Shown piece by piece: positions 13,494 through 47,484 of a stretch of DNA of 64,000 bases (position 1 is the stretch's first letter; the number at the start of each line of letters is the position of its first letter). A program made the translations under genes and the position numbers. Under the pieces are notes generated by a model. It saw only the letters and a list, made by a program, of their open reading frames with translations, was not told the DNA's origin and searched no databases. The stretch is from Vicinamibacterales bacterium. GTDB taxonomy: Bacteria; Acidobacteriota; Vicinamibacteria; Vicinamibacterales; UBA2999. Where the stretch lies: positions 334 through 64,333 of the forward strand of contig JBFWNV010000002.1 of the NCBI GenBank assembly GCA_050250875.1, read 5' to 3'.

Positions 13494-13528
13494 CCCCGAG
13501 CCCCGAGTCCCTAGCCCCGAGCCCCGAG
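13494..13528 (-). repeat. Heptad array R1 (5 units CCCCGAG/TCCCTAG on plus strand; G-rich GGGGCTC-type on minus strand)
   Basis: The array spans the sodA stop codon (13511-13513), encodes the sodA tail LGARG, and fills most of the 30-nt spacer before the OMP gene start. Confidence 0.9.
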
Positions 13529-14119
13529 CAGTCTGTTCACCTCCGCCCAATTCACCACGTTCCAGAACGCCGCCAGGTAGTCGGCGCGACGGTTCTGATA
13601 CTTGAGGTAGTAGGCGTGCTCCCACACGTCCACGCCGAGAATGGCCTTCTTGCCGTCCATCAGCGGGTTGTCCTGGTTCGGCGTGCTGGTGATCGAGAGC
13701 TTGCCGCCGTCGTCCACCAGCCACGCCCAGCCGCTGCCGAAGCGGCCCATGCCGGCGGCCTGGAACTGCTCCTTGAACTTGTCGAAACTGCCGAAGGCGG
13801 CGTTGATGCCGTCGGCCACGGCGCCGGTCGGCGCGCCGCCGGCGTTGGGCGCCATCAGCGTCCAGAACAGCGAGTGGTTCCAGTGCCCGCCGCCGTTGTT
13901 GCGGACGGCGGTGCGGATGTCCTCGGGCACCGAGGCGATGCCCCTGACGAGGTCGTCGAGGCTCTTGTCGTGCAGCGCCGGGTGCTTGTCGAGTGCGGCG
14001 TTCAGATTCGTCACGTAGGCCTGGTGGTGCTTGCCGTGATGAATCTGCATCGTCAGGGTGTCGATGTGGGGTTCGAGCGCCGCGTGGTCGTAGGGCAGCG
14101 CGGGCAGGGAATGAGCCAT
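13511..14119 (-). CDS. sodA: Superoxide dismutase (Fe/Mn family, Mn-type features)
   Basis: Motifs [17 protein letters not shown] and [16 protein letters not shown] (Gln in NQD) suggests the Mn type. Confidence 0.95.
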
Positions 14120-14212
14120 GGAACGAGCCTCCTCAGGGGGCGATATGGTCGGACGGTTGGCTTCCGATCGTAGCAGAACGACCGCACCGATCGGGACCGC
14201 GCGTGGCGCGGG

Positions 14213-15364
14213 TCAGTGGATCTGGAGCATGCGGTCGAGCGCCACCCTGCTCCAGTGGATCTGGTGCTCCGGCACCTCGACCTGGTTGTGCACCTGTCCC
14301 TCGACCAGTCCCTCGAGCACCCACAGCAGGTGGTTCGGCGAGACGCGGAACATCGTCGAGCACAGGCAGCCCATCTGGTCGAGCGACAGCACGGTGACGC
14401 CCTTGGGCGCCATCTCGGCCGCCAGCCGATGCACCAGGTGCACTTCGGTGCCGACCGCCCATACCGACCCCGGCGCGCCGTCACGCACCTGCTTCAGGAT
14501 GTACTCGGTGGAGCCGTCGTCATCGGCGGCCTGCACCACCTCGAACGGCACTTCGGGATGCACGATCACCCGGACGCCCGGATGCTCGGCGCGCACCGCG
14601 GCGATCTGCCGCGCGGTGAAGCGCACGTGCACCGAGCAATGGCCCTTCCACAGGATCAGCCGCGCCGCCTCGACCTGCGCCCGCGTCAGCCCGCCGAACG
14701 GCAGCTTGGGATCCCACACCACCATCTGGTCGAGCGGCACGCCCATCCGGAAGTGGGCGGTGTTGCGGCCGAGGTGCTGGTCGGGCAGGAACAGGATCTT
14801 CTCCTTCTGCTGCCAGCCCCACGCCAGCACGGCGGCGGCGTTCGACGACGTGCACACCGTGCCGCCCCGCTCACCGACGAAGCTTTTGATCGCCGCCGCG
14901 GAGTTGATGTAGGTCACCGGCACCGTGCGGGCGGCGACGCCGAGCTGCTCGAGTTCGCTCCAGCAGATTTCCAGCTCGTCGGCCGGCGCCATGTCGGCCA
15001 TCGAACAGCCGGCGGCGAGATCCGGCAGGATCACCTTCTGGTGCGGCAGCGCCAGGACGTCGGCGCTCTCGGCCATGAAGTGCACGCCGCAGAACACGAT
15101 GTACTCGGCGTTCGGGTGCCTGGCCACTTCGCGCGACAGCTTGAACGAGTCGCCGGTGTAGTCGGCGAAGCGGATCACCTCGTCGCGCTGGTAGTGATGG
15201 CCGAGGACGACCAGCCGGTCGCCCAGCGCGGCCCGCGCCGCGGCGATGCGCCGCTCCATCTCCTCGTCCGACAGACCGAGGTAGCGCTCCGGAAGCGGCT
15301 GCCGCTCGCGGATGCTGGCCTTCTCCACCTCGTTCAGAACCGGCAGAAACGTGGCCGTGCTCAT
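14213..15364 (-). CDS. nadA: Quinolinate synthase
   Basis: Full-length NadA-like ORF (VLGHHYQRDEV, CGVHFMAESADVL, AGCSMADMA, VTYINSAAAIKSF). Confidence 0.95.
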   Translation of the reverse strand: MSTATFLPVLNEVEKASIRERQPLPERYLGLSDEEMERRIAAARAALGDRLVVLGHHYQRDEVIRFADYTGDSFKLSREVARHPNAEYIVFCGVHFMAESADVLALPHQKVILPDLAAGCSMADMAPADELEICWSELEQLGVAARTVPVTYINSAAAIKSFVGERGGTVCTSSNAAAVLAWGWQQKEKILFLPDQHLGRNTAHFRMGVPLDQMVVWDPKLPFGGLTRAQVEAARLILWKGHCSVHVRFTARQIAAVRAEHPGVRVIVHPEVPFEVVQAADDDGSTEYILKQVRDGAPGSVWAVGTEVHLVHRLAAEMAPKGVTVLSLDQMGCLCSTMFRVSPNHLLWVLEGLVEGQVHNQVEVPEHQIHWSRVALDRMLQIH

Positions 15365-15497
15365 GGTCCCGGTGCCTTCGCCCTTCGCTCGCGCCCCCCA
15401 CCGACGATTGCGGACTTTGTGAAACTTTTCGCAATCTCCGGACGCGAAAAGACCAAGGTTCGCCGGTGGGCTCTCGCCGCGGCGTTCCTTGGTCTGT
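15365..15497 (-). promoter_or_regulatory. Structured nadA 5' leader; candidate NAD+-responsive (nadA-motif-like) riboswitch or attenuator
   Basis: The minus-strand RNA can fold as AGACCAAGG-AA-CGCCG-C-GGC-GAGA-GCC-CAC-CGGCG-AA-CCUUGGUCU followed by UUUU. Two mutually exclusive hairpins follow: CUUUUCG/CGAAAAG and GAUUGCG/CGCAAUC. I could not check this against the Rfam consensus. Confidence 0.35.
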
Positions 15498-15502
15498 TTT
15501 GG

Positions 15503-15530
15503 ATACTAGCACGTCGGCCGCAGAGTGCAA
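15503..15530 (-). promoter_or_regulatory. Candidate nadA promoter (-35 TTGCAC, 16-nt spacer, extended -10 TGcTAGTAT)
   Basis: The minus strand reads TTGCAC-N16-TAGTAT, with TG one base upstream of the -10 hexamer. Confidence 0.4.
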
Positions 15531-15567
15531 GGCCCCGGCGTCACCGCCGAGCTGGTACGATCCCGCC

Positions 15568-17520: not shown

Positions 17521-17552
17521 CCCGAGCCCCGAGACCCGAGCCCCGAGTCCCG
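17521..17552 (-). repeat. Heptad array R2 (CCCGAG CCCCGAG ACCCGAG CCCCGAG TCCCG on plus strand; G-rich on minus strand)
   Basis: The array starts immediately after the yjbQ-like stop codon (17553-17555) and ends 22 nt before the mqn gene start. Confidence 0.9.
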
Positions 17553-18149: not shown

Positions 18150-18372
18150 CGGCGGCCGGGTGCTACACTGCGCAGACAATCGACGCGTTCCCGTGGCTGG
18201 CCAGGGAAGTGGGTGCGAGTCCCACACGGTCCCGCCACTGTAAGCGGGGAGCGCCCGTCCACCGGCTGGACTGCGATCCAGCCCGTCACTGCCGATCGGC
18301 GCCGTGCGGCGCCGGCGGGGGGAAGACGAGGACGCGGCGTGACGATCCGCGAGTCAGGAGACCTCCTCCACG
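18150..18372 (+). promoter_or_regulatory. Cobalamin (B12) riboswitch
   Basis: The core reads CCAGGGAAGUGGGUGCGAGUCCCACACGGUCCCGCCACUGUAAGCGGGGA and includes the B12 box. The 3' element is GAGUCAGGAGACCUCCUCC. CCUCCUC (18362-18368) is complementary to the SD sequence GAGGAGG (18423-18429) of the downstream receptor gene. Confidence 0.85.
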
Positions 18373-18434
18373 GGCCCACGTCCTTCTCCCGCTCTTCGGA
18401 GCGGATCGGCGCGGAGAACGCCGAGGAGGGCCTG

Positions 18435-20735
18435 ATGGCATACCTTCGTACGCCGTCGTTTACGACGGCATCCCTTCCCTTTCGGATCCCGGGCACCCGG
18501 CTGACCGGGTGGCTGCTGGGGGTGCTGCTGGCCGCGGCTCCGGCAGCCGGCGCCGACACGCTTCGTGGCCGGGTGCTCGACCCGGACGGACGGCCGGTGG
18601 CCGGCGCGCGCGTGGCCGTGTCGGGCGCCAGCGCCGCCCCTCTCGCCGCCATCACCGACGCGTCCGGGGGCTTCGCCGTGGACGGCCTGCCGGCCGGCGC
18701 GGCCGTGGACGTGCAGGCGTGGACCGACGGGCTGAGCGCGCCGCCGGTGCGCGTGACCGTTTCGGGCACGGAGGTCGCCCTGCACCTGGCCGTGACCGCG
18801 GTGCGCGAGGCCCTCACCGTCACCGCCTCGCACGTCGAGACGCCGCTTTCGCTCGTCGGCGACAGCGTGACCGTGCTGACGCGGGAGGAACTCGACGCGC
18901 GTCAGGTGACGACCCTCGGCGACGCGCTGCGCCTGGTGTCGGGATTCGGCGTCGCGCGCAACGGCGGGCCGGGCACCGTGACCTCGGTCTTCCCGCGCGG
19001 CGGCGAGTCCGACTACACGATGGTGCTCGTCGACGGCGTGCGGATGAACGCCTTCGGCGGCGGGCTCGACGTCTCGCAGGTGCCCACCGCCGGCGCCGAG
19101 CGCATCGAGATCGTGCGCGGCCCGCAGAGCGCCCTGTACGGGTCGGACGCAATCGGCGGGGTCGTGCAGGTGGTGACGCCGCGGGGCGGGCCGTCGGTCG
19201 TCGAAGCGCTCGCCGAGGTGGGCGGGCGCGACGCGCGGCGCGCCAGCGGCATGGTCCGCGGCTCGATCGGCCGGTGGCACGGCACGGCCTCGGCGCAGCA
19301 CATGCGCGACGAGGGCTTCACCGGCCCGGCCCCGGCCGACGGCACGCCCGTGACCAACGACGACAGCCGCATCACCGACGTGTCGGCCGGCCTGGGTTGG
19401 CGGGGCGACGCCGGCACCGACCTGTTCGGCACCGTGCGTTACGTGGACGGCGACCGCGGGTCGCCCGGGCCGTTCGGGTCGAACCCGGCCGGCAACTTCT
19501 CCGGCGTGGACCGCGTCGCCCGCAGCCTCACGACGCAGCGGTCGGCGGCGGTGCGCCTGCTGCAGCCGCTGGGCGGAACGGCGAGTCGGGTGCGCCTGCG
19601 AGCCGAGGCCGACATCGCCGACTTCGACCTGGAGTACCGGGCGCCGTTCGGCTCGAACGGCGAGACGGCGCGCGCCCACGGCCGGCTCCAGGCCGACGCG
19701 GCGCTCACGGCCACGCTGGCGGCCAGCGCCGGCGGAGAGTGGGTCGGCGAAAGCGGCCGCAGCACCTACATCGTGGCCGGCGCCGCCGAGGTGCCGGTGG
19801 AGCGCGACGTGTGGGCGGCCTTCGCCGAAGCCCGCTGGCAGCCGCTGGCCGGCGTCTCGTTCACCGGTGGAGCACGTGCGTCGCGGATCACGCGGCTGGC
19901 CCTGGCCGCCAATCCGGCGGCGTTCTCGGCCCGGCCGGCCTTCGCCGACGACACGGTGGTGGCCGTGAACCCGAAGGTCACGGCGGCGTGGACGATCGTG
20001 CCGGGCGGCGGGCGCACAGGGACGTCGACCCGGCTGCACGCCGCCGCGGGCACCGGCATCCGGCCGCCCGACGCCTTCGAGATCGCGTTCACCGACAACG
20101 ACGGCCTGAAGCCGGAACGCAGCATCAGCGTCGAGGCCGGCATCACCCAGACCCTGGCCGACGGCGCCGTGCACGTCGACGGCACCTGGTTCCACAACCG
20201 CTACGACGACCTCATCGTCTCGGTCGGACGCTTCAGCAGTTCGAGCCGCTTCCAGACCGACAACATCGCCAACGCCCGCGCCCGCGGCGTCGAGCTCGCG
20301 CTCACCGTCCGGCCGATCGCCCGACTCACCGCCCGGACCACCTACACCTGGCTCGACAGCGAGATCCTCGCGGTGGACGGTGCCGACGGCCAGGCGCCGT
20401 CGCCCTTCGCGCCCGGCGACCGGCTGCTCCGGCGGCCGCGCCACCAGGGCAGCGCCGACATCGCGTGGGGAACGTCGCGGTTCCAGGCCTTCGCCACCCT
20501 GGCCGTGCGCGGCACGACGCTCGACGTCGAGCCCAATTTCGGCACCTTCGGCGGTCTCTTCGCGAACGACGGCTACTCGGCCGTCACGGTCGGCGGCGCG
20601 TGGACGATCGTCCCGCAGCTCACGGCGTTCGCCCGTGTCGTCAACGCCCTCGACGCCCGCTACGAAGACACGCTCGGCTACCCGGCTCTGGGCCGTACGG
20701 CCTACGTGGGACTACGGATTGCTGCACGCCGCTGA
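18435..20735 (+). CDS. btuB: TonB-dependent receptor (BtuB-like) with N-terminal carboxypeptidase-regulatory-like domain
   Basis: The last 766 aa of ORF 15525..20735. An SD sequence lies 6 nt upstream of the ATG. Plug motifs are present (DALRLVSGF, IEIVRGPQSALYGSDAIGGVVQV), and the barrel C-terminus is TAYVGLRIAARR. The gene is under riboswitch control. Confidence 0.85.
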   Translation: MAYLRTPSFTTASLPFRIPGTRLTGWLLGVLLAAAPAAGADTLRGRVLDPDGRPVAGARVAVSGASAAPLAAITDASGGFAVDGLPAGAAVDVQAWTDGLSAPPVRVTVSGTEVALHLAVTAVREALTVTASHVETPLSLVGDSVTVLTREELDARQVTTLGDALRLVSGFGVARNGGPGTVTSVFPRGGESDYTMVLVDGVRMNAFGGGLDVSQVPTAGAERIEIVRGPQSALYGSDAIGGVVQVVTPRGGPSVVEALAEVGGRDARRASGMVRGSIGRWHGTASAQHMRDEGFTGPAPADGTPVTNDDSRITDVSAGLGWRGDAGTDLFGTVRYVDGDRGSPGPFGSNPAGNFSGVDRVARSLTTQRSAAVRLLQPLGGTASRVRLRAEADIADFDLEYRAPFGSNGETARAHGRLQADAALTATLAASAGGEWVGESGRSTYIVAGAAEVPVERDVWAAFAEARWQPLAGVSFTGGARASRITRLALAANPAAFSARPAFADDTVVAVNPKVTAAWTIVPGGGRTGTSTRLHAAAGTGIRPPDAFEIAFTDNDGLKPERSISVEAGITQTLADGAVHVDGTWFHNRYDDLIVSVGRFSSSSRFQTDNIANARARGVELALTVRPIARLTARTTYTWLDSEILAVDGADGQAPSPFAPGDRLLRRPRHQGSADIAWGTSRFQAFATLAVRGTTLDVEPNFGTFGGLFANDGYSAVTVGGAWTIVPQLTAFARVVNALDARYEDTLGYPALGRTAYVGLRIAARR

Positions 20736-21504
20736 CCTCGGCTTCGGCTACGACGCCGCCCGGCCGGTCGTCTCGGGCATCACGCTCGAGGTGCCGGCGG
20801 GCGCGGTGGTCGGCGTGCTCGGACCGAACGGCTCGGGCAAGACCACGCTGCTCCGGCTGCTCGCCGGCACGCGGCAGCCGACGCACGGCGAGATCCGGTT
20901 CGACGGCCGTCCGCTCGCCACGTTCACCCGCCGGGCGCTGGCGCGGCGTCTCGCCGTCGTCCCGCAGGAGACCCATCTCGCGTTCGACTACACCGTCATG
21001 GAGATGGTGCTGATGGGCCGCCACCCGCACCTGGGGGTGTTCGAGGTCGAGGGTCCGGCCGACCTCGCCGTGGCCCGCGAGGCGCTGGCCGCCACCGGCG
21101 CCAGCCACCTCGAGGACCGCGACTTCGCGACGCTCAGCGGCGGCGAGAAGCAGCGCGTCGTGATCGCCGCCGCGCTCGCCCAGGCCACCGACGTGCTGCT
21201 GCTCGACGAGCCGACCTCGTCGCTCGATCTCGGCGCGCAGCTCGAGATCGCCCACCTGCTCGCCGAGCTCAACCAGCGGCGCGGCGTGACGATCGTCGTC
21301 TCCACCCACGACCTGCACCTGGCCGCCGGCATCTGCCGCGACCTGGTGCTGCTGCGTGCCGGGCGCGTCATCGCCCGCGGCCCGACCACGGAGGTGCTGA
21401 CCCGGGAGAACCTGCGCGCGCTCTACGGCGTGGACGCCGACGTGCACGTGCACGCGGCGACCGGGCACCTCACCGTGGTGCCGGTGCGGCGGACGGCCCG
21501 ATGA
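20719..21504 (+). CDS. btuD: ABC transporter ATP-binding protein (BtuD/FepC type)
   Basis: Walker A GPNGSGKTT, signature LSGGEKQR, Walker B LLLDEPTS. The start is uncertain; TTG 20719 was chosen and overlaps the end of btuB. Confidence 0.85.
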   Translation: MLHAADLGFGYDAARPVVSGITLEVPAGAVVGVLGPNGSGKTTLLRLLAGTRQPTHGEIRFDGRPLATFTRRALARRLAVVPQETHLAFDYTVMEMVLMGRHPHLGVFEVEGPADLAVAREALAATGASHLEDRDFATLSGGEKQRVVIAAALAQATDVLLLDEPTSSLDLGAQLEIAHLLAELNQRRGVTIVVSTHDLHLAAGICRDLVLLRAGRVIARGPTTEVLTRENLRALYGVDADVHVHAATGHLTVVPVRRTAR

Positions 21505-23404: not shown

Positions 23405-24066
23405 AGATCCTGGTGTCGTGGTCGAGCGGCAAGGACGCGGCGTGGATGCTGCACCGGCTGCGGCAGGCGCATCCCGGGGCGGCGGGCGGGCTGCTCACGA
23501 CCACCAGCGAGGCGTTCGACCGGGTGGCGATGCACGGCGTGCGGCGCGAGATCCTCGACGCCCAGGCCGACGCGGCGGGCCTGCCGCTGCACGTGGTGCC
23601 CCTGCCGTGGCCGTGCAGCAACGAAGAGTACGAACGGCGTCTCGGCGCCGCGGTGGCGCGCGCCGTGGCCGACGGCTTCACGCACGTCGCCTTCGGCGAC
23701 CTCTTCCTCGAGGATGTGCGCCGTTACCGCGAAGATCGTCTCGCCGGCACCGGGCTCACGCCGCTCTTTCCGCTGTGGAAGACGGCGGTCACCGCCGACC
23801 TGGCGCGCGCCATGGTCGCCGGCGGCCTGCAGGCGCGGCTGAGCACGGTGGATCCGCGGGTGCTCGACCCGTCGTTCGCCGGCCGCGCCTTCGATGCGGC
23901 GTTGCTCGCCGACCTGCCGCCCACGGTGGATCCGTGCGGCGAACGCGGCGAGTTCCACAGCTGCGTCACCGCCGGTCCGATGTTCGCGCGGGCGATCGAC
24001 GTCGTGGTCGGCGAGACCGTCGTCCGCGACGGCTTCGCGTTCGCCGACCTGCGGCTGGCGTCATGA
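23401..24066 (+). CDS. DUF71/COG2102 (Dph6-related) ATP pyrophosphatase, PP-loop superfamily
   Basis: The N-terminus MKILVSWSSGKDAAW resembles a PP-loop. AFGDLFLEDVRRYRE and GE(F)H are family-typical. GTGA overlap with btuF. Confidence 0.75.
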   Translation: MKILVSWSSGKDAAWMLHRLRQAHPGAAGGLLTTTSEAFDRVAMHGVRREILDAQADAAGLPLHVVPLPWPCSNEEYERRLGAAVARAVADGFTHVAFGDLFLEDVRRYREDRLAGTGLTPLFPLWKTAVTADLARAMVAGGLQARLSTVDPRVLDPSFAGRAFDAALLADLPPTVDPCGERGEFHSCVTAGPMFARAIDVVVGETVVRDGFAFADLRLAS

Positions 24067-33440: not shown

Positions 33441-33472
33441 TCCCTGGTCCCCGGTCCCTGGTCCCCGGTCCC
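33441..33472 (-). repeat. Heptad array R3 (TCCCTGG TCCCCGG x2 on plus strand; GGGACC[A/G]-type, G-rich on minus strand)
   Basis: The array fills the sufB-sufC spacer, starting directly after the sufB stop codon (33473-33475) and ending 6 nt before the sufC ATG. Confidence 0.9.
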
Positions 33473-34931: not shown

Positions 34932-34979
34932 CCCTGTTCCCCAGCCCCGTTCTTGACCGAGTCCCCAGCCCCCAGCCCC
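34932..34979 (-). repeat. G-tract array R4 in the iscA-sufB spacer (GGGGCTG-type; 7 G-tracts on minus strand)
   Basis: The minus strand reads (TAG)GGGCTGGGGGCTGGGGACTCGGTCAAGAACGGGGCTGGGGAACAGGGC, directly after the iscA-like stop codon. Confidence 0.85.
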
Positions 34980-35308
34980 TAGACCCCGAACGAAGTTCCG
35001 CACCCGCACGCGCTCTTCGCGTTGGGGTTGCGCAGCGTGAAGGTCGTGGCCATGAGGTTGCCCTCGTCGAAGTCGAGCACCGTGCCGTCGAGCAGCTTCA
35101 GGCTGCGCGGGTCGACGAACACCTTGACGCCCTCCGGCCCGTCGAACACCTGATCGGTCGGCCTGGCCTCGCGCTCCCACTGGAAAACGTAGCTGTAGCC
35201 CGAGCAGCCGCCGGCCTTGATGGCCACGCGCAGTCCACCCCGGGCCGCGCCGCTCTTCACGAGCTGCCGGTTGATGACCCGCGCCGCGCTCTCCGTGATC
35301 TCAATCAT
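34979..35308 (-). CDS. A-type Fe-S carrier (IscA/SufA/ErpA, HesB family)
   Basis: Motifs GGCSGYSY and C-terminal CGCGTSFGV. ATGA overlap with the upstream gene. Confidence 0.85.
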   Translation of the reverse strand: MIEITESAARVINRQLVKSGAARGGLRVAIKAGGCSGYSYVFQWEREARPTDQVFDGPEGVKVFVDPRSLKLLDGTVLDFDEGNLMATTFTLRNPNAKSACGCGTSFGV

Positions 35309-35742
35309 CCCGCCACCCCGCGTCCCGCCCGAGCCCCGAGCCCCGAGTCCCGAGCCCCGGCCTTGCGTTCCCAGTCCCCGATCGCCTGCTGCACCGCCGC
35401 CACGGCCTGCACCGCCATCGCCCGCTTCTCGTCCGGCAGCTCCAGCCCGTTGGCGATGGCCGCAGCGTCGAGGCCACGGGCCGCGTCCACGGCCAGGCCG
35501 GCCACCTGCTCGGCCGCCAGGCTGGCGCTGGCGATCGCCGCGCTGCAGCCGAACACCTTGAAGCGGGCGTCGTCGACGACGACACCGGTCACGCGCACCT
35601 GCATGCGCACCACGGTGCCGGCGTCGAGGCTGCCCACGACGCCGGTGCCGACCTGCGGGTCGTGCTCCGCCCAGCCGCCGGCACGGGTCATCTCGCGGCA
35701 GCGGCGGATCACCTCGGCCGAGTAGCCGGTGGCGACGCTCAT
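35305..35742 (-). CDS. NifU/IscU N-domain-like protein (degenerate: only one of three canonical cluster Cys retained)
   Basis: FKVFGCSAAIASAS matches the central IscU motif. The positions of the first (GAPACGD) and third (HCS) Cys motifs read GSLDAGT and RAMAV. Coupled by ATGA overlaps on both sides. Confidence 0.65.
   Translation of the reverse strand: MSVATGYSAEVIRRCREMTRAGGWAEHDPQVGTGVVGSLDAGTVVRMQVRVTGVVVDDARFKVFGCSAAIASASLAAEQVAGLAVDAARGLDAAAIANGLELPDEKRAMAVQAVAAVQQAIGDWERKAGARDSGLGARAGRGVAG
35327..35360 (-). repeat. Heptad array R5 (GCCCGAG CCCCGAG CCCCGAG TCCCGAG CCCCGG on plus strand), lying inside the 3' coding end of the NifU-like gene
   Basis: The array is translated as ..[12 protein letters not shown].. 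in the 35305..35742 ORF. Confidence 0.9.
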
Positions 35743-36920: not shown

Positions 36921-36927
36921 GGCGGAC

Positions 36928-37407: not shown

Positions 37408-37499
37408 GGGTGGTCGTCCTGACGCTGGGACGCCGGGGATTGGGGCCCCCGGCGACGCCGTCCAGCGGGATCGCCAGAAATGGCGACCTCACGAGTCCT

Positions 37500-37528: not shown

Positions 37529-37551
37529 GTCGGGGATTGGGTGGACGGTTC

Positions 37552-37569
37552 AGGGACCGGGGACCAGGG
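37552..37569 (+). repeat. Heptad array R6 (AGGGACC GGGGACC AGGG, G-rich on plus strand)
   Basis: Left arm of composite element A, complementary to R7. Confidence 0.8.
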
Positions 37570-37664
37570 AAAGCGCTTGGCACGGCGCGTTCCGCGCCGT
37601 AGGCGCCTCAAAGCCCGCACGAGCAGGAACCCAGGCCGCGGCGACGCGGCCGACAGGCGTTCTG

Positions 37665-37693
37665 CCCGGTCCCGGGTCCCTGGTCCCTGGGTC
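37665..37693 (-). repeat. Heptad array R7 (CCCGGT CCCGGGT CCCTGGT CCCTGGGTC on plus strand; G-rich on minus strand)
   Basis: On the minus strand the array begins 10 nt after the cysO::moeZ stop codon (37704-37706). Confidence 0.85.
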
Positions 37694-37703
37694 GCTGCGA
37701 GCG

Positions 37704-39152: not shown

Positions 39153-39176
39153 ACGTCCTCGTTGGAAACCTCAAGT

Positions 39177-39608
39177 CTACGACGCCGCGGCCGCCTCCGC
39201 CGTGTCGACCGCCTGTTCGTCGTAGCCCGACCGGTCGGCCTTCAGCCGCCACGCGCGCAGTGCCCCCGGCTGGCCCTGCTGCACCGACAGGATCGGGTAG
39301 ACGAAGGTCGGGAAGGCGTGATCGAGATCGTACTGCGACGGCTCGGCCGGGTGATCGGGGTGGGAGTGGTAGAAGCCGAGCAGACTCAGCCCCGCCGCCG
39401 ACGCCTTGCGCTCGGCCGCCAGGTAGTCCTTGTCGTCCACCCGGAAGCGGCGGCGCGGCCCCTCGGTGGTCACGTTGGGCAGCGGGTGCACGGCGTGCAC
39501 GACGTCGCCCTCACCCAGCAGCGCGCCGCAGCATTCGTGCGGATAGGCCTCGCGGCCGTGCTGCTCGATGGCGGCGCGGACGCCAGGCCTGAGCGTGAGC
39601 GGCATCAT
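39177..39608 (-). CDS. mec: JAMM/MPN+ metalloprotease (Mec-type)
   Basis: Contains E..ECCG and the JAMM motif HSHPDHPAEPSQYD. ATGA overlap with cysM. Confidence 0.85.
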   Translation of the reverse strand: MMPLTLRPGVRAAIEQHGREAYPHECCGALLGEGDVVHAVHPLPNVTTEGPRRRFRVDDKDYLAAERKASAAGLSLLGFYHSHPDHPAEPSQYDLDHAFPTFVYPILSVQQGQPGALRAWRLKADRSGYDEQAVDTAEAAAAS

Positions 39609-40567
39609 GTCGTCGGCGTCTCCGACAGCGGCGCCGCGTCCACGGCGGGCTTCCGTCCCTCGTCCCAGAAGTGCTCGGACAGGTAGCGATCGCCGGCATC
39701 GCACAGCACGACCACCATCACGACGCGGTCCCGGCTGCGCAGTGCGTCGGCCGCCCGGGCCAGCCCGGCGGCGACGTTGGCGCCGCTCGAAACGCCGACG
39801 AGCAACCCCTCTTCGCGGGCCAGCCGGCGGGTCATCTCGTGCGCGGCCTCGGTCGAGATCTCCGCAGCGTAGTCGGCCAGCGTCTCGTCGTAGATGCCGG
39901 GGACGATCGCCGAGGCCATGTGCTTGAGCCCTTCGAGCCCGTGCAGCGGCGACTCCGGCTGCACCGAGACCAGCACGACGTCGGGGATGTGGGCGCGCAG
40001 GAAGCGGCCCGTGCCCATGAACGTGCCGCTGGTGCCGAGCGCGGCGATGAAATGGGTGAGGCGGCCGGCCGTGCCGGAGAGGATCTCCGGCCCGGTGGTC
40101 TCGTAGTGCGCCCGCCAGTTGAAGTCGTTGTTGTACTGATCCGGATAGAAATACCGCTCCGGGGCCGCGGCATACCGGCGCCGGCACTCGACGATCGCGC
40201 CGTCCGATCCGTCCATCGGATCGGTGAACACGAGGTCGGCACCATAGGCGGTGAGGATGCGCTTCCGCTCCGGACTCGCGCTCGCCGGCACGCACAGCGT
40301 CACCGGGAAGCCCAGGGCGGCGCCGATCATCGCGTAGGCGATGCCGGTGTTGCCGGAGGTGGCGTCGAGCAGCCGCTTGCCGGGGCCGAGCGCTCCCGAG
40401 CGGATGCCCTCGAGAATCATGTGGCGGGCGGCGCGGTCCTTCACCGACCCGCCCGGGTTGCTCGCCTCGAGCTTGCCGTACAACTCGAGGCCCGGCACGT
40501 CGCGTTCGAGCCGCGACAGGCGGACCAGTGGCGTATTGCCGATGGCGTCCAGCAGCGTTCTGTCCAT
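39605..40567 (-). CDS. cysM: Cysteine synthase (CysM-like, PLP-dependent)
   Basis: Motifs NPGGSVKDR, SGNTG and GTSGTFMG. ATG 40567; the ORF track uses TTG 40573. Confidence 0.9.
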   Translation of the reverse strand: MDRTLLDAIGNTPLVRLSRLERDVPGLELYGKLEASNPGGSVKDRAARHMILEGIRSGALGPGKRLLDATSGNTGIAYAMIGAALGFPVTLCVPASASPERKRILTAYGADLVFTDPMDGSDGAIVECRRRYAAAPERYFYPDQYNNDFNWRAHYETTGPEILSGTAGRLTHFIAALGTSGTFMGTGRFLRAHIPDVVLVSVQPESPLHGLEGLKHMASAIVPGIYDETLADYAAEISTEAAHEMTRRLAREEGLLVGVSSGANVAAGLARAADALRSRDRVVMVVVLCDAGDRYLSEHFWDEGRKPAVDAAPLSETPTT

Positions 40568-40690
40568 GGACAAGTTTCCAGCTTATGGCACAACGCGGGC
40601 CGTGGCACGACGCACCTGTGACGAACCGCCGGGTCGAGCGACATATTCGCTGGATCGAATGCGCCGCCGGCATCGTGGCATGATCCCGGC

Positions 40691-41302
40691 GTGCCTCTCG
40701 ACACCTGGCGCGCGCGCCGGCATCTAATGGCGGCCGACCCGTTGCTGGCCGACCTGATCCGGCGGGCCGGTCCGTGCCGGCTGGGCACCTCCCGACACGA
40801 GGACCCGTTCTTTCTCCTGCTGCGGGCGATCGTGTCGCAGCAGCTCTCGACCAAGGCAGCGGCGACGATCTTCGGACGCCTGTGTGCGCTGTTCCCCGCC
40901 GATCGCCCGTCGCCGTCGCGGCTGCTGGCCCTCGACGACGCCACCCCCCGCGGCGTCGGTCTCAGCACCAACAAGACGCGGTTCGTCCGCGACCTCGCCG
41001 CGCGCGTCCGCGATCGGCGCCTCGACCTCAACGCCCTCGAGCACCAGGACGACGCCACCGCCCTGAATGCGCTGACCGCGGTGCTCGGCATCGGTACGTG
41101 GACCGCCGAGATCTTCCTGATGTTCCAGCTGCATCGGCCCGATATCTTTCCGGCCGCCGACCTCGGTCTGCTGACGGCGATGCAGCGCGTCTACGGGCTG
41201 CGCACGCGGCCGACCGCGAAGCGGGCCCTGCGGCTGGCCGAACCCTGGCGCCCGCACCGGTCGGTGGCCGCGTGGTACCTGTGGCGGAGCCTGGAGATCT
41301 AG
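40691..41302 (+). CDS. DNA-3-methyladenine glycosylase II family (HhH-GPD, AlkA-like)
   Basis: Contains SQQLSTKAA, GIGTWTAEIFLMF and an Asp-containing loop FPAADLGL. Confidence 0.8.
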   Translation: MPLDTWRARRHLMAADPLLADLIRRAGPCRLGTSRHEDPFFLLLRAIVSQQLSTKAAATIFGRLCALFPADRPSPSRLLALDDATPRGVGLSTNKTRFVRDLAARVRDRRLDLNALEHQDDATALNALTAVLGIGTWTAEIFLMFQLHRPDIFPAADLGLLTAMQRVYGLRTRPTAKRALRLAEPWRPHRSVAAWYLWRSLEI

Positions 41303-41305
41303 TGC

Positions 41306-41337
41306 AGGGACCAGGGATCAGGGACCGGGGACCAGGG
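41306..41337 (+). repeat. Heptad array R8 (AGGGACC AGGGATC AGGGACC GGGGACC AGGG; G-rich on plus strand)
   Basis: The array starts 3 nt after the AlkA-like stop codon (41300-41302). Confidence 0.9.
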
Positions 41338-41448
41338 AAAGGCGTCGGCGCTGATCGCGCCGACCTCAAGTTGTTCAGACCTACAGGGGCTCCCGACACG
41401 GAGGAATCGCCCACCAGCCGTAGGCGTAAGTTCCGTCGGAGGAAGTTT

Positions 41449-41500
41449 CCTGATCCCTGATCCCTGGTCCCTGGTCCCTGGTCCCTGGTCCCTGGTCCCT
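41449..41500 (-). repeat. Heptad array R9 (2 x TGATCCC + 5 x TGGTCCC on plus strand; G-rich on minus strand)
   Basis: The array abuts the SIMPL gene stop codon (41500-41502) and is complementary to R8. Confidence 0.9.
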
Positions 41501-42206
41501 TACTTGATCGTCACCGTCAGCGTCACCGTGGCCCGAATCACCGCCTCGCCGGCGGCGATCGGCGGCGGCGGCGCAGCGGCGATGCTGTCGGCCGCCATCC
41601 GCATCATCGGCTGTTCGATCGGCCGGCTGACGACGCCGTCCTCTTCGATGCGTACGACGGCGACGACCGTGGCGCCGGCCCCGTCAGCGGCCGCCGCCGC
41701 GCGGGCGCGCGCATCGGCGACCGCCCGGGTGATCGCCTGGCGCTCGAGCTGCGTGCGATCCTTCACGTCGAACCGCACGCCCTGCACGGCGGTGCCGCCG
41801 GCGGTGACGGCGATCTCGAGCAGTTCGCCGACCCGCCCCACCTGGTCGGCCCGCACCTCGATCACGTTGCGGGCCAGAAATCCCCTCGGCACCTGCTTGC
41901 CGTTGACGTAGTCGAACTGCGGCTGCAGGTCGTAGCTGAGCGTGCGGATGGCGTCCTTGGCCAGCCCGGCGCCGGTCAGGCGCTGCTGGACGGCGGTCAT
42001 CGCCGTCGCACCCTGCGTCTGGGCATCCTTGGCGGTGCTGCCGCGGTGCTCGGTGGCCAGCGTGATGAAGGCGACGTCGGGCTGGGCACGCACCTCGCCC
42101 TCGCCGCGCACGACGACGACCGGCGGTGGCGGTCCGGCCGGGGGCTGCGCCGCCACCGGGGTGATGCCCACGCCGATCGCGAACAGCGAGCACAGGGCAC
42201 GTCGGG

Positions 42207-42210
<4 letters not shown>
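41500..42210 (-). CDS. SIMPL-domain (DUF541) periplasmic protein
   Basis: The signal peptide MTRRALCSLFAIGVGITPVAA is followed by a SIMPL-like pattern (VRGEGEV.A.PD.A, Y.V). ATGA overlap with the upstream gene. Confidence 0.7.
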
Positions 42211-43052
<842 letters not shown>

Positions 43053-43233
43053 TCAGGCCGTGGTGACTGTGGCGCCGGCACTCGACCGGCGATGCATCCC
43101 GCCTCGCATCGTTGCTCCTCCCTCGAATATTTCTCGATATCCTCGGTCGTCGCGTCTTGCGATCCGGGCGCCTCTCCGCCCTCGGTGCTGCGCCACCACA
43201 GCCACCAAGGCCTGATCAGTATACTCGGCGCCT

Positions 43234-44376
43234 ATGCGGGTCGAGCCCTTCGCGATGGAGCGCTTTCAGTCGGTCTGGGAGCACCGGGTACGCATCAACC
43301 TGTCGGAGAGCGGCGTCCATCCCCTCAGCGTGCGCGAGCTGGTCGGCGACGGCGCGGCCCTCGACGCGCTGCTCGATCAGCCGCTCGTCTACACCCAGAC
43401 CAACGGCACCGAGGCGCTCCGCTCGGCCATCGCCGCGCTCTATCCCGGCGCTGGCGTGGACCACGTCGAGGTGACCAACGGCGGAGCCGAGGCCAACTTC
43501 CTCGTCACCTGGTACCTCGTGCAGCCGGGCGACGAGGTGGTGATGCTCGTGCCCACCTACATGCAGACGCACGGGCTGGTCCGCGCCTTCGGCGGCGTCG
43601 TCCGCGAGTGGCCGCTGGTCGAGGACCGCGACGAGCGGCGGTGGCGGCTCGATCTGGACCATCTGGCCGCCCTGGTCGGCCCGCGCACGCGGGCGATCGT
43701 GCTGTGCACGCCCAACAACCCGACCGGCCGGCGGCTCACCGGCGACGAACTCGATGCCATCGCCGCGATCGCCGATCGCCACGGCTGCTGGATCGTGAGC
43801 GACGAGATCTACCGCGGCGCCGAACGCGACGGCGTCGAGTCGCCGTCGATGTGGGGGCGCGGTGAACGCGTCGTCGTCACGAGCGGTCTGTCCAAGGCCT
43901 ACGGCCTGCCCGGCCTGCGCATCGGCTGGGTGGCAACCGCGCCGGACGTGGCCGAGACCCTGTGGAGCTATCACGACTACACCACGATCGCGCCGGGCGC
44001 CCTGAGCGATCGCCTGGCGCGGACGGCGCTGGCGCCACCGACCCGGGCCCGACTGCTGGCGCGCACGCGCCAGGTGATCACCGACAACCTGCCGCGGGTC
44101 GAAGCCTGGCTCGATGCGCACGGCGATCGCTTCGCCTGGATCCCGCCCGAGGCCGGCGCCTTCGTCTACGCCCGCTACGCCGGCGCCATCAACTCGACCG
44201 CGCTGGTCACGCGCCTGCGCGACGAGGAGAGCGTCCTGGTCGTCCCCGGCGATCAGTTCGGCATGGACGGCTACCTGCGGATCGGCGTCGGTGAACACGT
44301 CGCATCGGTGATGGCCGGTCTGGAGCGGCTGCGCGCGGTGCTCGACTGCTGGCCACAGCCCGCGGCTGCACGCTGA
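43234..44376 (+). CDS. PLP-dependent aminotransferase, class I/II
   Basis: Motifs NPTGRRL, SDEIY and SGLSKAYGLPGLRIGW (PLP lysine). Confidence 0.85.
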   Translation: MRVEPFAMERFQSVWEHRVRINLSESGVHPLSVRELVGDGAALDALLDQPLVYTQTNGTEALRSAIAALYPGAGVDHVEVTNGGAEANFLVTWYLVQPGDEVVMLVPTYMQTHGLVRAFGGVVREWPLVEDRDERRWRLDLDHLAALVGPRTRAIVLCTPNNPTGRRLTGDELDAIAAIADRHGCWIVSDEIYRGAERDGVESPSMWGRGERVVVTSGLSKAYGLPGLRIGWVATAPDVAETLWSYHDYTTIAPGALSDRLARTALAPPTRARLLARTRQVITDNLPRVEAWLDAHGDRFAWIPPEAGAFVYARYAGAINSTALVTRLRDEESVLVVPGDQFGMDGYLRIGVGEHVASVMAGLERLRAVLDCWPQPAAAR

Positions 44377-45419
44377 TGCCGGCGCGGCCGTCGCTGCGGC
44401 TCGTGCTCGTCGGCACCGGCCATGTCGGGCGCCGGCTGCTGACGCTGCTCGCCCAGATCGGCGACCGGCTGCCGTTCGACTGGTCGCTGGTCGGGGTGTG
44501 CTCCCGATCGCGCGGCGGCCGGTTCGACGCCGACGGGATCGATCCGGGCCAGCTCGATGGGCCGCTCGATCCGCCGGAGCGCTGGAACGGCGACGGCAGC
44601 GGCTTTCTCTCGGCCGCCCTGCCGCGGCTGGCCGCCGAGTGCCGCGCCGGCCGCGTGGTGGTCGTCGAAACCACCGTGCTGGACGCCGCCCGCGGGGAAC
44701 CGGCGACGAGCCACGTGCGAACGGCGCTGGGCGCCGGCGCCCACGTCGTCACCGCCAACAAGGGACCGGCGGCATTCGCGTATCACGACCTGGCGGCCCG
44801 CGCCGCCGCCGCCGATCGCGCGTTCCTCTTCGAGAGCGCGGTCATGGACGGCGTGCCGGTGTTCTCGCTGGTCGCCGACGCGATGCCGGCGATGCGTGTC
44901 ACGGCGTTCCGCGGCGTCGTCAACACGACCTGCGGCTACGTCCTGGCCGCGCTCGAGCGCGGCGAACGCTTCGCCGACGCGCTCGCCGAGATGCAGCGCC
45001 AGGGCATCGCCGAGGCCGATCCGTCACTGGACGTCGACGGCTGGGATGCCGCGGCGAAGGCGGCCGTGCTGGCCAATGCGCTGCTCGACGCCCGGATCAC
45101 GCCCCACGACGTCGTCCGTCAGGGCATCCGCGGCCTCGACGTCGAGGCCCTGGCCCGGCACAGGACCCAGGGGGTGCGGCTGCGCCTGGTGGCCGAGGGA
45201 CGGCGCACGGCGGACGCCGTGACGTGCCGCGTGGCGCCGGCGTGGCTCGAGGCGGCGGATCCCCTGGCCCAGGTGTCGGGGCTCGAGAACGCGCTCTATC
45301 TGTCCACCGACCTTCTCGGCGAGATCGGCATCGTGCAGCGCGACGGCGGCCTCACCCAGACGGCGTACGGCCTGGTCGCCGATCTGGCGCGGGTCAGCCG
45401 TCGGGTGACCGCCCGGTGA
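44376..45419 (+). CDS. Homoserine dehydrogenase family oxidoreductase
   Basis: The N-terminal Rossmann motif is VLVGTGHVGRRL. Also ANKGP, ESAVMDGVPV and AEADPSLDVDGWDAA. Confidence 0.7.
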   Translation: MPARPSLRLVLVGTGHVGRRLLTLLAQIGDRLPFDWSLVGVCSRSRGGRFDADGIDPGQLDGPLDPPERWNGDGSGFLSAALPRLAAECRAGRVVVVETTVLDAARGEPATSHVRTALGAGAHVVTANKGPAAFAYHDLAARAAAADRAFLFESAVMDGVPVFSLVADAMPAMRVTAFRGVVNTTCGYVLAALERGERFADALAEMQRQGIAEADPSLDVDGWDAAAKAAVLANALLDARITPHDVVRQGIRGLDVEALARHRTQGVRLRLVAEGRRTADAVTCRVAPAWLEAADPLAQVSGLENALYLSTDLLGEIGIVQRDGGLTQTAYGLVADLARVSRRVTAR

Positions 45420-45642: not shown

Positions 45643-45703
45643 GCATCCGACATTACCAGAGCGCCGGCCGGCGCGACGCGGGGTACCATGTGCGGGACAC
45701 GAC

Positions 45704-46897
45704 ATGGGACCACTGACCGGCATCACCGTTCTCGACTTCACGCGCGTGCTCTCCGGGCCGTACTGCACGATGATCCTCGGCGACCTCGGCGCGCGCGTCA
45801 TCAAGCTCGAACATCCCGGCCGCGGTGACGACACCCGGCGCTGGGGCCCGCCGTTTCTCGGTGACGAGAGCGCCTACTTCCTGAGCGTCAACCGCAACAA
45901 GGAGAGCGTGGCGGTCGACTTCAAGACGCCGGGCGGCCGCGCCCTCGTGGATCGGTTGCTGGCCCAGGCCGACGTGCTGGTCGAGAACTTCCGTCCCGGC
46001 ACGCTCGACGGCGCCGGGTTCGATGCGGCCACTGTGCGGGCGGCGCATCCGCGGTTGATCTACTGCTCCATCTCCGGCTACGGCCAGACCGGGCCCCGCC
46101 GCGACGAACCCGGCTACGACGCGGTGATGCAGGCCGAGGGCGGGCTGATGAGCATCACCGGAGCGGCCGACGGGCCGCCGTATCGCCTCGGCGTCGCCAT
46201 CGTGGACATCGTCTCGGGCATGTTCGCCGCGCAGGGCGTGCTCGCGGCGCTCGTCGCCCGCGAGCGCACCGGGCAGGGCCAGGTGGTCGATCTCGGCATG
46301 CTCGACGCCACCACCGCGCTGCTCACCTATCAGGCCGGCAACTTCTTCGCGACCGGCGCGGCGCCGGGCCGGCTCGGCAACCGTCATCCGACCATCGCGC
46401 CCTACGAGACCTTCGCCACCGCCGACGGCGACCTGGCCCTGGCCGTCGGCAACGACGCGCTGTGGCAGAAGTTCTGCGCGGCCGCGGAGCTGCCCGACCT
46501 GGCCGCCGATCCGCGATTCGCGTCGAACGCCGGACGGCTCGAGCACTACCCGGCGCTCAAGCCGCGGCTCGACGCGGCGTTCGCCTCACGGACGCGCGCC
46601 GACTGGACGGCGCGGCTGCTGGCCGCGGGCGTGCCGTGCGGGGCGGTGCGGACGGTGGAGGAGGTCTTCGCCGATCCGCAGACGGCGGCGCGCGAGATGG
46701 TGCGGAAGGTGCCGCACGCGACGCTGGGCGAGGTCTCGGTCACCGGCGTGCCGGTCAAGCTGTCGGACACCCCCGGCAGCGTGCGCCTCGGTCCGCCGGT
46801 GCTGGGGCAACATACCGCGGCGGTGCTGCGCGAGCTCGGCTACGATCAGGCGGCCATCGCATCACTGGCGTCGTCGGGCGCCGTCCGGGTGGCGTGA
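45704..46897 (+). CDS. CoA transferase, family III (CaiB/BaiF)
   Basis: Motifs ITVLDFTRVLSGPYCTMILGDLGARVIKLE, ENFRPG and GYD..MQA.GG. Confidence 0.85.
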   Translation: MGPLTGITVLDFTRVLSGPYCTMILGDLGARVIKLEHPGRGDDTRRWGPPFLGDESAYFLSVNRNKESVAVDFKTPGGRALVDRLLAQADVLVENFRPGTLDGAGFDAATVRAAHPRLIYCSISGYGQTGPRRDEPGYDAVMQAEGGLMSITGAADGPPYRLGVAIVDIVSGMFAAQGVLAALVARERTGQGQVVDLGMLDATTALLTYQAGNFFATGAAPGRLGNRHPTIAPYETFATADGDLALAVGNDALWQKFCAAAELPDLAADPRFASNAGRLEHYPALKPRLDAAFASRTRADWTARLLAAGVPCGAVRTVEEVFADPQTAAREMVRKVPHATLGEVSVTGVPVKLSDTPGSVRLGPPVLGQHTAAVLRELGYDQAAIASLASSGAVRVA

Positions 46898-46898
46898 G

Positions 46899-47327
46899 AT
46901 GGACATCGCCCTGCTCCGCAAGTCGCTGGTCAAGGCCATCGAGAGCGCCCGGCGCGACGCCGCCGAGCGGCGCACGCGCGCCGACGAGGCCGGCCGCCAC
47001 TACACGCAGTTCCTCGAGCAGACGGCGACGCCGGTGTTCCGGGCGATGGCCAACGCCCTGCGCGGCGAGGGTCTGCTCTTCGACGTGATGACGCCGTCGG
47101 GCGGCGTCCGCCTGGTGCCCGAGCGGTCGCGGGAGGACGGCATCGAGCTGGTGCTCGACACCAGCGTGGATCCGCCGCAGCCGCTGGTGCGCGTGGTGCG
47201 CTCGCGCGGCAGCCGGGTGACGCAGCACGAGCGGCCGGTGGCCGGCCCGGTCCGCACCGACGCGCTCACCGAGGATCACGTGGCGGCGATGCTGCTCGAA
47301 GAGCTGCGGCCGTGGTTGGAGAGATAG
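46899..47327 (+). CDS. Hypothetical protein
   Basis: 142-aa ORF starting 1 nt after the upstream stop codon. No family was recognised. Confidence 0.5.
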   Translation: MDIALLRKSLVKAIESARRDAAERRTRADEAGRHYTQFLEQTATPVFRAMANALRGEGLLFDVMTPSGGVRLVPERSREDGIELVLDTSVDPPQPLVRVVRSRGSRVTQHERPVAGPVRTDALTEDHVAAMLLEELRPWLER

Positions 47328-47390
47328 GCTCGGGGCTCGGGGCTCGGGGCTCGGGGCTCGGGGCTCGGGGCTCGGGGCTCGGGGCTCGGG
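47327..47390 (+). repeat. Heptad array R10 (about 9 x GGGGCTC, G-rich on plus strand)
   Basis: A perfect tandem array beginning at the last base of the stop codon 47325-47327. Confidence 0.95.
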
Positions 47391-47457
47391 AAGAACCTAA
47401 ACGGAACCATCACCCATTCTTCCGGCAGCGTGACGTCTCGACAACTTGAGTGTTCGA

Positions 47458-47484
47458 ACCCGAGCCCCGAAACCCGAGCCCCGG
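47458..47484 (-). repeat. Heptad array R11 (ACCCGAG CCCCGAA ACCCGAG CCCCGG on plus strand; G-rich on minus strand)
   Basis: On the minus strand the array begins 19 nt after the PilT-like stop codon (47504-47506). It is complementary to R10. Confidence 0.85.

Follow-up and report, generated by a model that had tools for sequence, protein, structure and literature searches.

Heptamer arrays at gene 3' ends of a Vicinamibacterales genome are strand-oriented, often paired and quickly changed between strains

A 64-kb stretch of DNA from a Vicinamibacterales bacterium of the phylum Acidobacteriota (positions 334 to 64,333 of contig JBFWNV010000002.1, assembly GCA_050250875.1; hereafter the window, always at its full length) carries eleven arrays of tandem, G-rich 7-nucleotide (nt) units. 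These heptad arrays are real, non-random and oriented by strand, and they belong to gene 3' ends and to the gaps between cistrons. We tentatively read them, with a probability of roughly 45%, as hypervariable heptamer microsatellites that build RNA structure close to the stop codon: a long hairpin where two arrays are paired and, in this genome, possibly a quadruplex where an array is single. Any effect of the arrays on RNA ends, RNA stability or Rho is one that we infer. Comparison of related sequences points to the inverted pairing of neighbouring arrays, and not to G-richness, as the conserved property.

The source genome has a G+C content of 72%, and its sequence and those of all relatives used below are metagenome-assembled. 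Using Tandem Repeats Finder, on whose thresholds the array counts depend, we recovered all eleven arrays that a preliminary description of this DNA had named. They appeared as period-7 repeats at 13493-13529, 17521-17552, 33441-33473, 34963-34987, 35328-35359, 37551-37570, 37668-37693, 41305-41338, 41449-41500, 47327-47390 and 47457-47483; the fourth has in addition a degenerate 5' portion (34932-34948). Each array holds 2.9-9.1 units (median 4.6). The array sequences bear out the two unit families given in that description, GGGGCTC/GGGGCTG and GGGACC[A/G], and the tract counts agree with it as well: ten of the eleven arrays have at least four tracts of three or more G, and the array at 37552-37569 has three. 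GGG runs spaced at period 7 were found 14 times with at least three tracts, compared to 2.4 in Markov-1 shuffles, and nine times with at least four tracts, compared to 0.055. Canonical quadruplex motifs number 16 in the window (6.6 +/- 2.6 expected); about 12 of these lie within arrays, so there is no excess of such motifs outside them. Rfam families have no match at any array, and the only matches in the window are two tRNAs and a cobalamin riboswitch. No Rfam family accounts for the arrays.

Genes of the window were called by a self-trained codon-usage script, whose results are consistent with Pfam matches and with the gene calls in databases; genes in relatives were likewise called by our own script. 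It turned out that ten of the eleven arrays indeed have a gene with its stop codon at most 20 nt away and are G-rich on the sense strand of that gene. The genes encode SodA, YjbQ, SufB, an IscA-like protein, a NifU-like protein, a ThiS-ThiF-rhodanese protein (CysO::MoeZ), an HhH-GPD protein, SIMPL, the product of ORF 46899-47327 and an 898-aa protein with a T2SSE ATPase domain. The offset from stop codon to array is about -19 nt for SodA, 0 for YjbQ, 0 for SufB and about -9/0 for the IscA-like gene. For the NifU-like gene the array lies within the coding tail, and for the others the offset is 10 (CysO::MoeZ), 2-3 (HhH-GPD), -1 (SIMPL), -1 (ORF 46899) and 19-20 nt (T2SSE). The offsets span -19 to +20 nt. 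The NifU-like array had been described as the only one in a coding tail; there are two, the sodA stop (13511-13513) falling inside the sodA array. The array at 37552-37569, taken at first for an exception to the strand rule, is instead the second arm, C-rich and 3', of an inverted pair. Since two such arms do not count as independent, the rule rests on five single arrays and three pairs, and over these independent elements it holds in 8/8 (two-sided p of about 0.008). All three pairs are located at boundaries between transcription units. The five single arrays lie in short co-directional gaps or, in the case of the NifU tail, a little upstream of the junction at which nifU and iscA overlap, and divergent gaps of the window contain no array. 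The arrays, their spacers and the genes that adjoin them are the following.

13494..13528, minus strand: single array of the GGGGCTC type, about 5.3 units, covering the last six sodA codons and the TAG stop.
13511-14119, minus strand: sodA, stop codon 13511-13513; an alginate-export-family gene lies downstream of the array.
17521..17552, minus strand: single array of the GGGGCTC type, about 4.6 units, beginning right after the yjbQ stop (17553); its 3' edge is 22 nt ahead of the start (17498) of a CofH-like radical-SAM gene.
33441..33472, minus strand: single array of GGGACC[A/G], about 4.6 units, filling the sufB-sufC gap from the sufB stop codon to 6 nt upstream of the sufC ATG.
34932..34987, minus strand: single array of the GGGGCTG type, partly degenerate, with a clean portion at 34963-34987; it overlaps the TAG stop of the iscA-like gene and finishes 10 nt ahead of the sufB start.
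35327..35360, minus strand: single array of the GGGGCTC type, about 4.6 units, translated as a junk C-terminal tail of the NifU-like protein; it finishes 19 nt ahead of the iscA-like start.
37665..37693, minus strand: 5' arm of pair 1, GGGACC type, four G-tracts, 10 nt past the CysO::MoeZ stop.
37570..37664, minus strand: spacer of pair 1, 95 nt, with GC-rich hairpins of its own.
37552..37569, plus strand: 3' arm of pair 1, about 2.9 units, C-rich on the moeZ transcript and upstream of the iscR promoter region.
40727-41302, plus strand: HhH-GPD glycosylase gene, with an arm of pair 2 located 3' of its stop.
41306..41337, plus strand: arm of pair 2 with about 4.9 units of the GGGACCA type, 3 nt past the HhH-GPD stop.
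41338..41448, no strand: 111-nt spacer of pair 2, flanked by convergent genes, with internal hairpins.
41449..41500, minus strand: arm of pair 2 with about 7.4 units of the GGGACCA type, in contact with the SIMPL TAA stop.
41500-42210, minus strand: SIMPL gene, its TAA stop adjoining the pair 2 arm.
47327..47390, plus strand: arm of pair 3, a perfect (GGCTCGG)x9.1 repeat, starting at the final base of the TAG of ORF 46899-47327 (plus strand).
47391..47457, no strand: spacer of pair 3, 67 nt between convergent genes.
47458..47484, minus strand: arm of pair 3 with about 3.6 units of the GGGGCTC type, 19 nt past the T2SSE stop.
47504-50200, minus strand: gene of the 898-aa T2SSE-ATPase protein, its stop 19 nt from the pair 3 arm.

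We compared the window with close strains. Over 3511-24119, the window is matched with full identity by a contig of assembly GCA_050182705.1. A sister metagenome contig about 98% identical to window 29788-44844 differs from it by 20 indel events, and 20/20 of them are inside five array-bearing intergenic regions. Four sites differ in unit type between the window and the sister strain.

sufB-sufC site: GGGACC[A/G] in the window, GGCTAGC type in the sister strain.
NifU-tail site: GGGGCTC in the window, GGGACCA in the sister strain.
moeZ-iscR pair: GGGACC in both arms in the window, GGCTAGC type in both arms in the sister strain, with a different spacer.
orf46899/T2SSE pair: GGGGCTC in both arms in the window, G[G/C]GGCTA in both arms in the sister strain, with a different spacer.

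The SIMPL-side arm (41449..41500) is two units shorter in the sister strain. The spacer of pair 1 is unrelated in sequence to that of the 98%-identical strain, and the same is true of the pair 3 spacer. The 250-nt flanks of the swapped arrays carry 0-7 substitutions, mostly 0-2, and are mostly 99-100% identical. With flanks so nearly identical beside the swapped arrays, recombination import from a divergent donor is an unlikely source of the swaps. A mobile element with a conserved core, similar to a miniature inverted-repeat transposable element (MITE), was also rejected: the spacers of different pairs share no significant similarity, and similarity is confined to the arrays.

Unit changes notwithstanding, four Isc-Suf junctions have kept arrays both in the window and in a different species (83-91% amino-acid identity). 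This species has GGGACC-type arrays at all four junctions, which indicates that the type is probably ancestral there. At the yjbQ-cofH site the GGGGCTC family is kept in six other contigs at 91-94% identity; point changes remove G-tracts in some strains, and the array is retained. Both array-encoded protein ends deserve mention here. The C-terminal tails of SodA (13511-13528) and of the NifU-like protein (35305-35360) are encoded by arrays, and the NifU-like tail is wholly different between strains, that of the sister strain (L003 9570-9612) being ...KNRDQGPGTGDQGRR. Metagenome contigs tend to end at or near arrays, as do contigs 50 and 110 of GCA_050182705.1, and the JGI contig Ga0131077_10011030 (L166) ends right after the orf46899 pair. 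This suggests that the arrays break short-read assemblies.

The wider sample of relatives comprised about 2 Mb in 160 loci, 80 around the moeZ orthologue (1.4 Mb) and 80 metagenomic loci around sufB (0.57 Mb), the latter with SufB identities of at most 88% among the matches listed, which added no strain-level alleles. The closest relatives of the ThiS-ThiF-rhodanese protein among species-representative genomes are all from Vicinamibacterales or other Acidobacteriota, the best at 83% identity. In the moeZ loci, tandem repeats of at least three copies have period 7 in 135 cases, compared to 49 with period 6, 21 with period 8 and 42 with period 9. The sufB metagenomic loci, among the matches listed, gave 41 period-7 arrays, compared to 9-11 for other periods. 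The units of relatives are diverse (GGGACCA, GGGGCTC, GGGAGTT, GTAACTT, GAAAACT, GGATTGC, GGCAGTA, GTAAAAA, AATTCTG and others), and most have no G-tract. The median copy number is 4.55 for units containing G3 and 4.15 for other units. Since the units of relatives are mostly not G-rich, quadruplex potential is particular to this high-GC genome and does not extend to the whole class of arrays in the phylum.

Period and pairing proved more constant than sequence. Of the neighbouring arrays, defined by a distance of at most 250 nt, 24/36 repeat the same unit in inverted orientation and 2/36 in direct orientation; for non-neighbouring pairs within one locus the counts are 19/278 inverted and 23/278 direct (Fisher 8e-16 against neighbours). 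Within a genome, the unit differs from pair to pair, which means that the two arms of a pair vary together. The start of the first arm is -4 to +17 nt from the stop, and second arms typically end 14-19 nt ahead of the next start. Arrays between convergent genes are within 20 nt of a stop in 18/18 cases. Arrays number 96 in 744 co-directional, 18 in 157 convergent and 7 in 232 divergent gaps, the divergent ones being depleted. The strand bias relative to the adjacent gene was upheld beyond the window: in other species, stop-adjacent single arrays and first arms have more G than C on the sense strand in a ratio of 39:13 (p = 4e-4), and in the clade of the window the ratio is 11:0. The first 35 nt past array-free stops gave 407:415 in the same comparison.

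To assess RNA structure, we used ViennaRNA with quadruplex energies, and all folds given here are energy-model predictions. Sense RNAs crossing both arms of a pair are predicted to form hairpins of -96 to -139 kcal/mol in which the arrays are the outer stems. For the six paired arrays, the inter-arm hairpin of 20-33 bp is predicted to outcompete any quadruplex. Allowing quadruplexes changes nothing in the predicted folds of pairs 1 and 2; in pair 3 a quadruplex is predicted solely within the loop of the orf46899 (plus strand) transcript. Among the single arrays, a quadruplex enters the predicted minimum-energy fold of the iscA-sufB array (-45 compared to -24 kcal/mol) and of the NifU-tail array (-33.5 compared to -26.7 kcal/mol). 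It does so only marginally at sodA and sufB-sufC; at yjbQ, the predicted fold consists of hairpins without a quadruplex. The hairpins of the pairs have no U tract, and between 30 and 50 kb of the window we found four terminator-like sites with U tracts (4.6 expected by chance), none of them at an array. For this part of the window, the arrays are thus rejected as intrinsic (Rho-independent) terminators.

Array-free gene ends in the window have GC-rich hairpins directly past the stop, also without U tracts. A family of hairpins similar to repetitive extragenic palindromes (REP) was seen here, with the form GTAG + GGCAGnnC-loop-GnnCTGCC and five matches compared to 0.16 expected; on the other strand it reads GGCAGnnC-loop-GnnCTGCCCTAC (the reverse complement of GTAG plus hairpin). 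Its copies at 11940-12004 and 28190-28255 are inverted at two convergent gene junctions, and at the 28.2 kb junction the stop codons of the genes (TAG) contribute to the GTAG motif. One more copy is found in the moeZ-iscR spacer of the sister strain (L003 ~7190-7230).

According to the favoured reading, the arrays would occupy untranslated RNA that starts at the stop codon. A transcript crossing both arms of a pair would fold into a GC-rich hairpin of 20-33 bp that brackets the whole spacer, and this hairpin may be an array-built counterpart of the plain GC-rich and GTAG (REP-like) hairpins at array-free ends. It may mark and protect the mRNA 3' end and insulate the neighbouring gene in the fashion of REP and bacterial interspersed mosaic elements (BIME). 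Single arrays would be a partnerless version of the same material in short co-directional gaps; at 72% GC they are predicted to be G-rich enough for an RNA quadruplex, which could block exonuclease similarly. Most likely, the excess of G over C on the sense strand arose because sense transcripts are selected against carrying C-rich RNA that is free of ribosomes and loads Rho, and the C-rich tracts on antisense transcripts would be a side effect. The role suggested in the preliminary description, RNA structure at 3' ends or between cistrons, therefore survives as the best reading, without the quadruplex as its core.

Several points weigh against this reading. In the wide sample, 36 co-directional single arrays are nearer the stop and 28 nearer the next start, a difference that is not significant, and stop-hugging of single arrays is rejected as a general rule. 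Orthologous sites of distant relatives carry arrays 9-24% of the time. This is only a few times our rough figure of about 3.5% for any gene end; conservation over the long term is thus weak, and strong positional conservation is rejected. The AT-rich single arrays of relatives can form neither hairpins nor quadruplexes, which means that single arrays may have no structural role. The concordance of arms could come from template switching at quasi-palindromes and not from selection for pairing. The lengths of the arms within a pair are also unequal (9.1 and 3.6 units in pair 3).

The main rival reading, possible if doubtful, is that the arrays are a neutral by-product without positive function. 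Heptamers would be the most slippage-prone unit, and arrays would arise in the unconstrained DNA past stops and not in promoters. Template switching at quasi-palindromes would make the inverted partners and keep them matched, and negative selection alone, against C-rich sense RNA and against disruption of coding sequences, Shine-Dalgarno sites or promoters, would do the rest. Such an origin is consistent with units that vary from site to site and from species to species, with the confinement of all 20 indels between the ~98% identical strains to five array-bearing regions, with decay of arrays through point changes, with the low orthologous occupancy and the indifferent position of co-directional singles, and with the junk tails that arrays add to SodA and NifU at no apparent cost. 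In the heptamer arrays of Xanthomonas and Nostoc, Rehm et al. 2015 (PMC4692102) likewise identified no function or regulatory role. However, arrays between convergent genes always abut a stop even where at least 100 nt of spacer is free, they persist across species at four junctions despite their instability, and pairs are placed exactly where other genes have hairpins. Two Xanthomonas species, moreover, keep 83% of their arrays in the same gene context with differing length and sequence, in surroundings of above-average synteny (PMC4692102). It is unlikely that the quadruplex itself is the functional element, with four or more G-tracts folding as RNA or DNA to block exonucleases, to pause polymerase or ribosomes, or to tune operon expression. 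The tract counts in ten of the eleven arrays, the G-rich sense strand and the predicted folds (clear for iscA-sufB and the NifU tail, marginal for sodA and sufB-sufC) speak for it, and oligonucleotides of GGGAATC and GGGGAYT form K+-dependent quadruplexes in vitro (PMC4692102). But equivalent arrays without G-tracts are present in the ~98% identical strain and in other species, where the same or equivalent gene ends use GGCTAGC, GTAACTT, AATTCTG, GAAAACT or GGATTGC. Some strains have lost the G-tracts of the yjbQ site and kept the array; the predicted fold of the yjbQ array in the window is hairpins; units without G show the same distribution of copy number, and paired arrays are predicted to form a duplex. 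Because G-tracts are not conserved at orthologous sites and paired arrays are predicted to be duplex, the quadruplex is not supported as the core explanation.

The swaps between strains raise the question of how new units reach a gene end. There is a very small chance that, throughout the genome, some process rewrites entire cassettes (arm, spacer, arm) behind genes with whichever unit type is then active; this would explain the change of unit type at four sites, with both arms changed together, and the GGCTAGC type at four sites of one strain. In its broader form, in which a dedicated process installs an active unit type at gene ends by templated synthesis, by microhomology-mediated copying between arrays or by an unrecognised mobile element, active writing is the least probable explanation considered here. 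It could account for the four sites that differ in unit between mostly 99-100% identical flanks, for both arms of a pair changing together with replacement of the spacer, and for the strain in which a GGCTAGC-type unit stands at four sites that are GGGACC or GGGGCTC in the window; GGGACC at all four Isc-Suf junctions of the outgroup suggests successive waves of unit types. Against it, the spacers of different pairs are dissimilar and have no conserved mobile core, nearly every site in other genomes has its own unit, and the units GGGGCTC and G[G/C]GGCTA are only 1-2 bases apart. The genes annotated in the window, where annotation is partial, include no transposase or reverse transcriptase. Highly improbable, too, is an antisense silencer, that is, a C-rich complement, (CCCGAGC)n or (TGGTCCC)n, which would load Rho and halt antisense transcripts entering the gene 3' end. 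The excess of G on the sense strand is specific and amounts to an excess of C on the antisense strand, and each transcript at a convergent pair meets a C-rich arm just before the neighbouring gene. Yet many arrays of relatives are AT-rich or balanced in G and C, and in pairs the C-rich arm would be sequestered in the hairpin once made.

Three other roles were rejected. A Shine-Dalgarno or translation-enhancer role is contradicted by the presence of GGAG, GAGG or AGGA on the sense strand in only 5/42 arrays located at most 25 nt from a start. A fail-safe terminator with stops in three frames is contradicted by GGGGCTC and GGGACCA, which contain no stop; some units of relatives contain TAG, TAA or TGA and give stops in all three frames. 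Phase variation by contingency simple sequence repeats (SSR) does not agree with the position of the arrays at the 3' ends of the housekeeping genes sodA, suf, isc and moeZ.

Some further features of the window were noted. The Isc/Suf iron-sulfur assembly block (29658-37407, co-directional on the minus strand) contains iscR, iscS, nifU-like, iscA-like, sufB, sufC, sufD, sufS and a second NifU_N gene, and it probably extends to the FeS_assembly_P gene that follows the second NifU_N in database calls for the same DNA. At 37704-40573, the genes for CysM (PALP), a JAB/Mec-like protein and the fused ThiS-ThiF-rhodanese protein (CysO::MoeZ) stand in a row. This looks like a cluster for cysteine synthesis from a sulfur-carrier protein, with carrier and activating enzyme fused, and the CysO::MoeZ fusion is widespread in Acidobacteriota. 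The cobalamin riboswitch (18203-18364) is upstream of a TonB-dependent receptor and an uptake operon of ABC, FecCD and periplasmic-binding genes (18339-24875). At 51060-54328, feoB follows a gene in which the dimerisation domain of a DtxR-type iron-dependent repressor is fused to FeoA domains. A direct duplication of about 65 nt at 8041-8206 (98% identical over 42 nt) takes in a hairpin and the 3' terminus of a tRNA (7992-8065); it may have been left by an integration site or have arisen as a local tandem duplication. The top-scoring non-heptad repeat of the window is a 54-nt tandem repeat at 60437-60562 (2.3 copies, 78% matches).

With this window, the stop-hugging, strand-oriented and often paired layout of heptads is now seen in a third, unrelated phylum. 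The relatives amount to an experiment of nature: their units vary freely in sequence and in G content, and period 7, inverted pairing of neighbours and the sense-strand excess of G over C persist. This moves the focus from quadruplexes to hairpins and strand-specific constraints on RNA. The sufB-sufC and yjbQ-cofH junctions and the three pairs are concrete sites for testing. Strain variation is concentrated at the arrays, and so are contig breaks in metagenome assemblies.

Dispersed heptamer repeats of bacteria were first seen in cyanobacteria, and have posed the question of their purpose ever since. The short tandemly repeated repetitive (STRR) heptamers of heterocystous cyanobacteria were reportedly described by Mazel and co-workers in 1990. 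STRR and other Nostoc heptamers (bioRxiv 10.1101/2022.06.06.494920) resemble the window arrays in being tandem, intergenic and dispersed, in falling into several unit families within a genome and in lacking an established function. They differ in being mostly AT-richer, with the studied cases upstream of start codons or promoters, and the text consulted documents no stop-codon or strand rule for them. The TAACTGA direct repeats of marine Beggiatoaceae, Cyanobacteria and Bacteroidetes, for which a role at the RNA level was proposed and not demonstrated, are likewise abundant intergenic tandem heptamers, in 2-6 or more copies (MacGregor 2015, PMC4679880). They have one conserved unit across phyla, lie a few nt upstream of start codons and nearly lack inverted pairs, with one indirect repeat in 170 sets (PMC4679880). 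The arrays of the window, in contrast, have diverse units, hug the stop codon and are often paired.

The REP/BIME elements (REPIN) of enterobacteria and pseudomonads are stop-proximal, often form inverted pairs and lie between convergent or co-directional genes. They are polymorphic between strains while their flanks are conserved, and their RNA hairpins protect the upstream mRNA. The REP unit is an imperfect palindrome of about 35 nt with a GTAG motif, mobilised by the RAYT transposase. The window arrays share with REP/BIME the stop-proximal site, the frequent inverted pairing and the strain polymorphism between conserved flanks; their heptad units, unlike REP, are not palindromic and have no conserved core. 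No RAYT (Y1) transposase was seen among the annotated genes of the 64-kb window, for which no dedicated test was made.

The closest class is that of Rehm et al. 2015, whose arrays have the unit GGGAATC in the two Xanthomonas genomes studied and GGGGA[C/T]T in Nostoc (PCC 7120), with about four units preferred (PMC4692102). Those arrays lie on the coding strand, within 50 nt past the stop or overlapping it; the Xanthomonas heptamers are about 90% intergenic, on average 28 nt from the upstream gene, with 70-75 convergent inverted array pairs per genome and few arrays between divergent genes (PMC4692102). The window arrays are similar in being tandem 7-nt units with a G3-4 tract in about four or more copies, and in adjoining stops with the G-rich strand coding (10/11, offsets -19 to +20 nt). 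Inverted pairs are again frequent (three in the window, 24/36 neighbours across loci), arrays are scarce inside genes and between divergent genes (7/232 divergent gaps), and gene context is kept in relatives with varying array length and sequence. A full-text literature search returned no report of such heptamer repeats for Acidobacteria. The units GGGGCTC/G and GGGACC[A/G], unlike GGGNATC or GGGGA[C/T]T, are outside the consensus of Rehm et al. and so form a different sequence family within the same kind. The host is of another phylum, many units of its relatives are not G-rich, and the unit type differs between near-identical strains; units without G-richness and swaps between such strains weaken the quadruplex reading favoured for Xanthomonas and Nostoc (PMC4692102). 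Thus, the arrays of the window are a new lineage and new unit families of the class already described in Xanthomonas and Nostoc.

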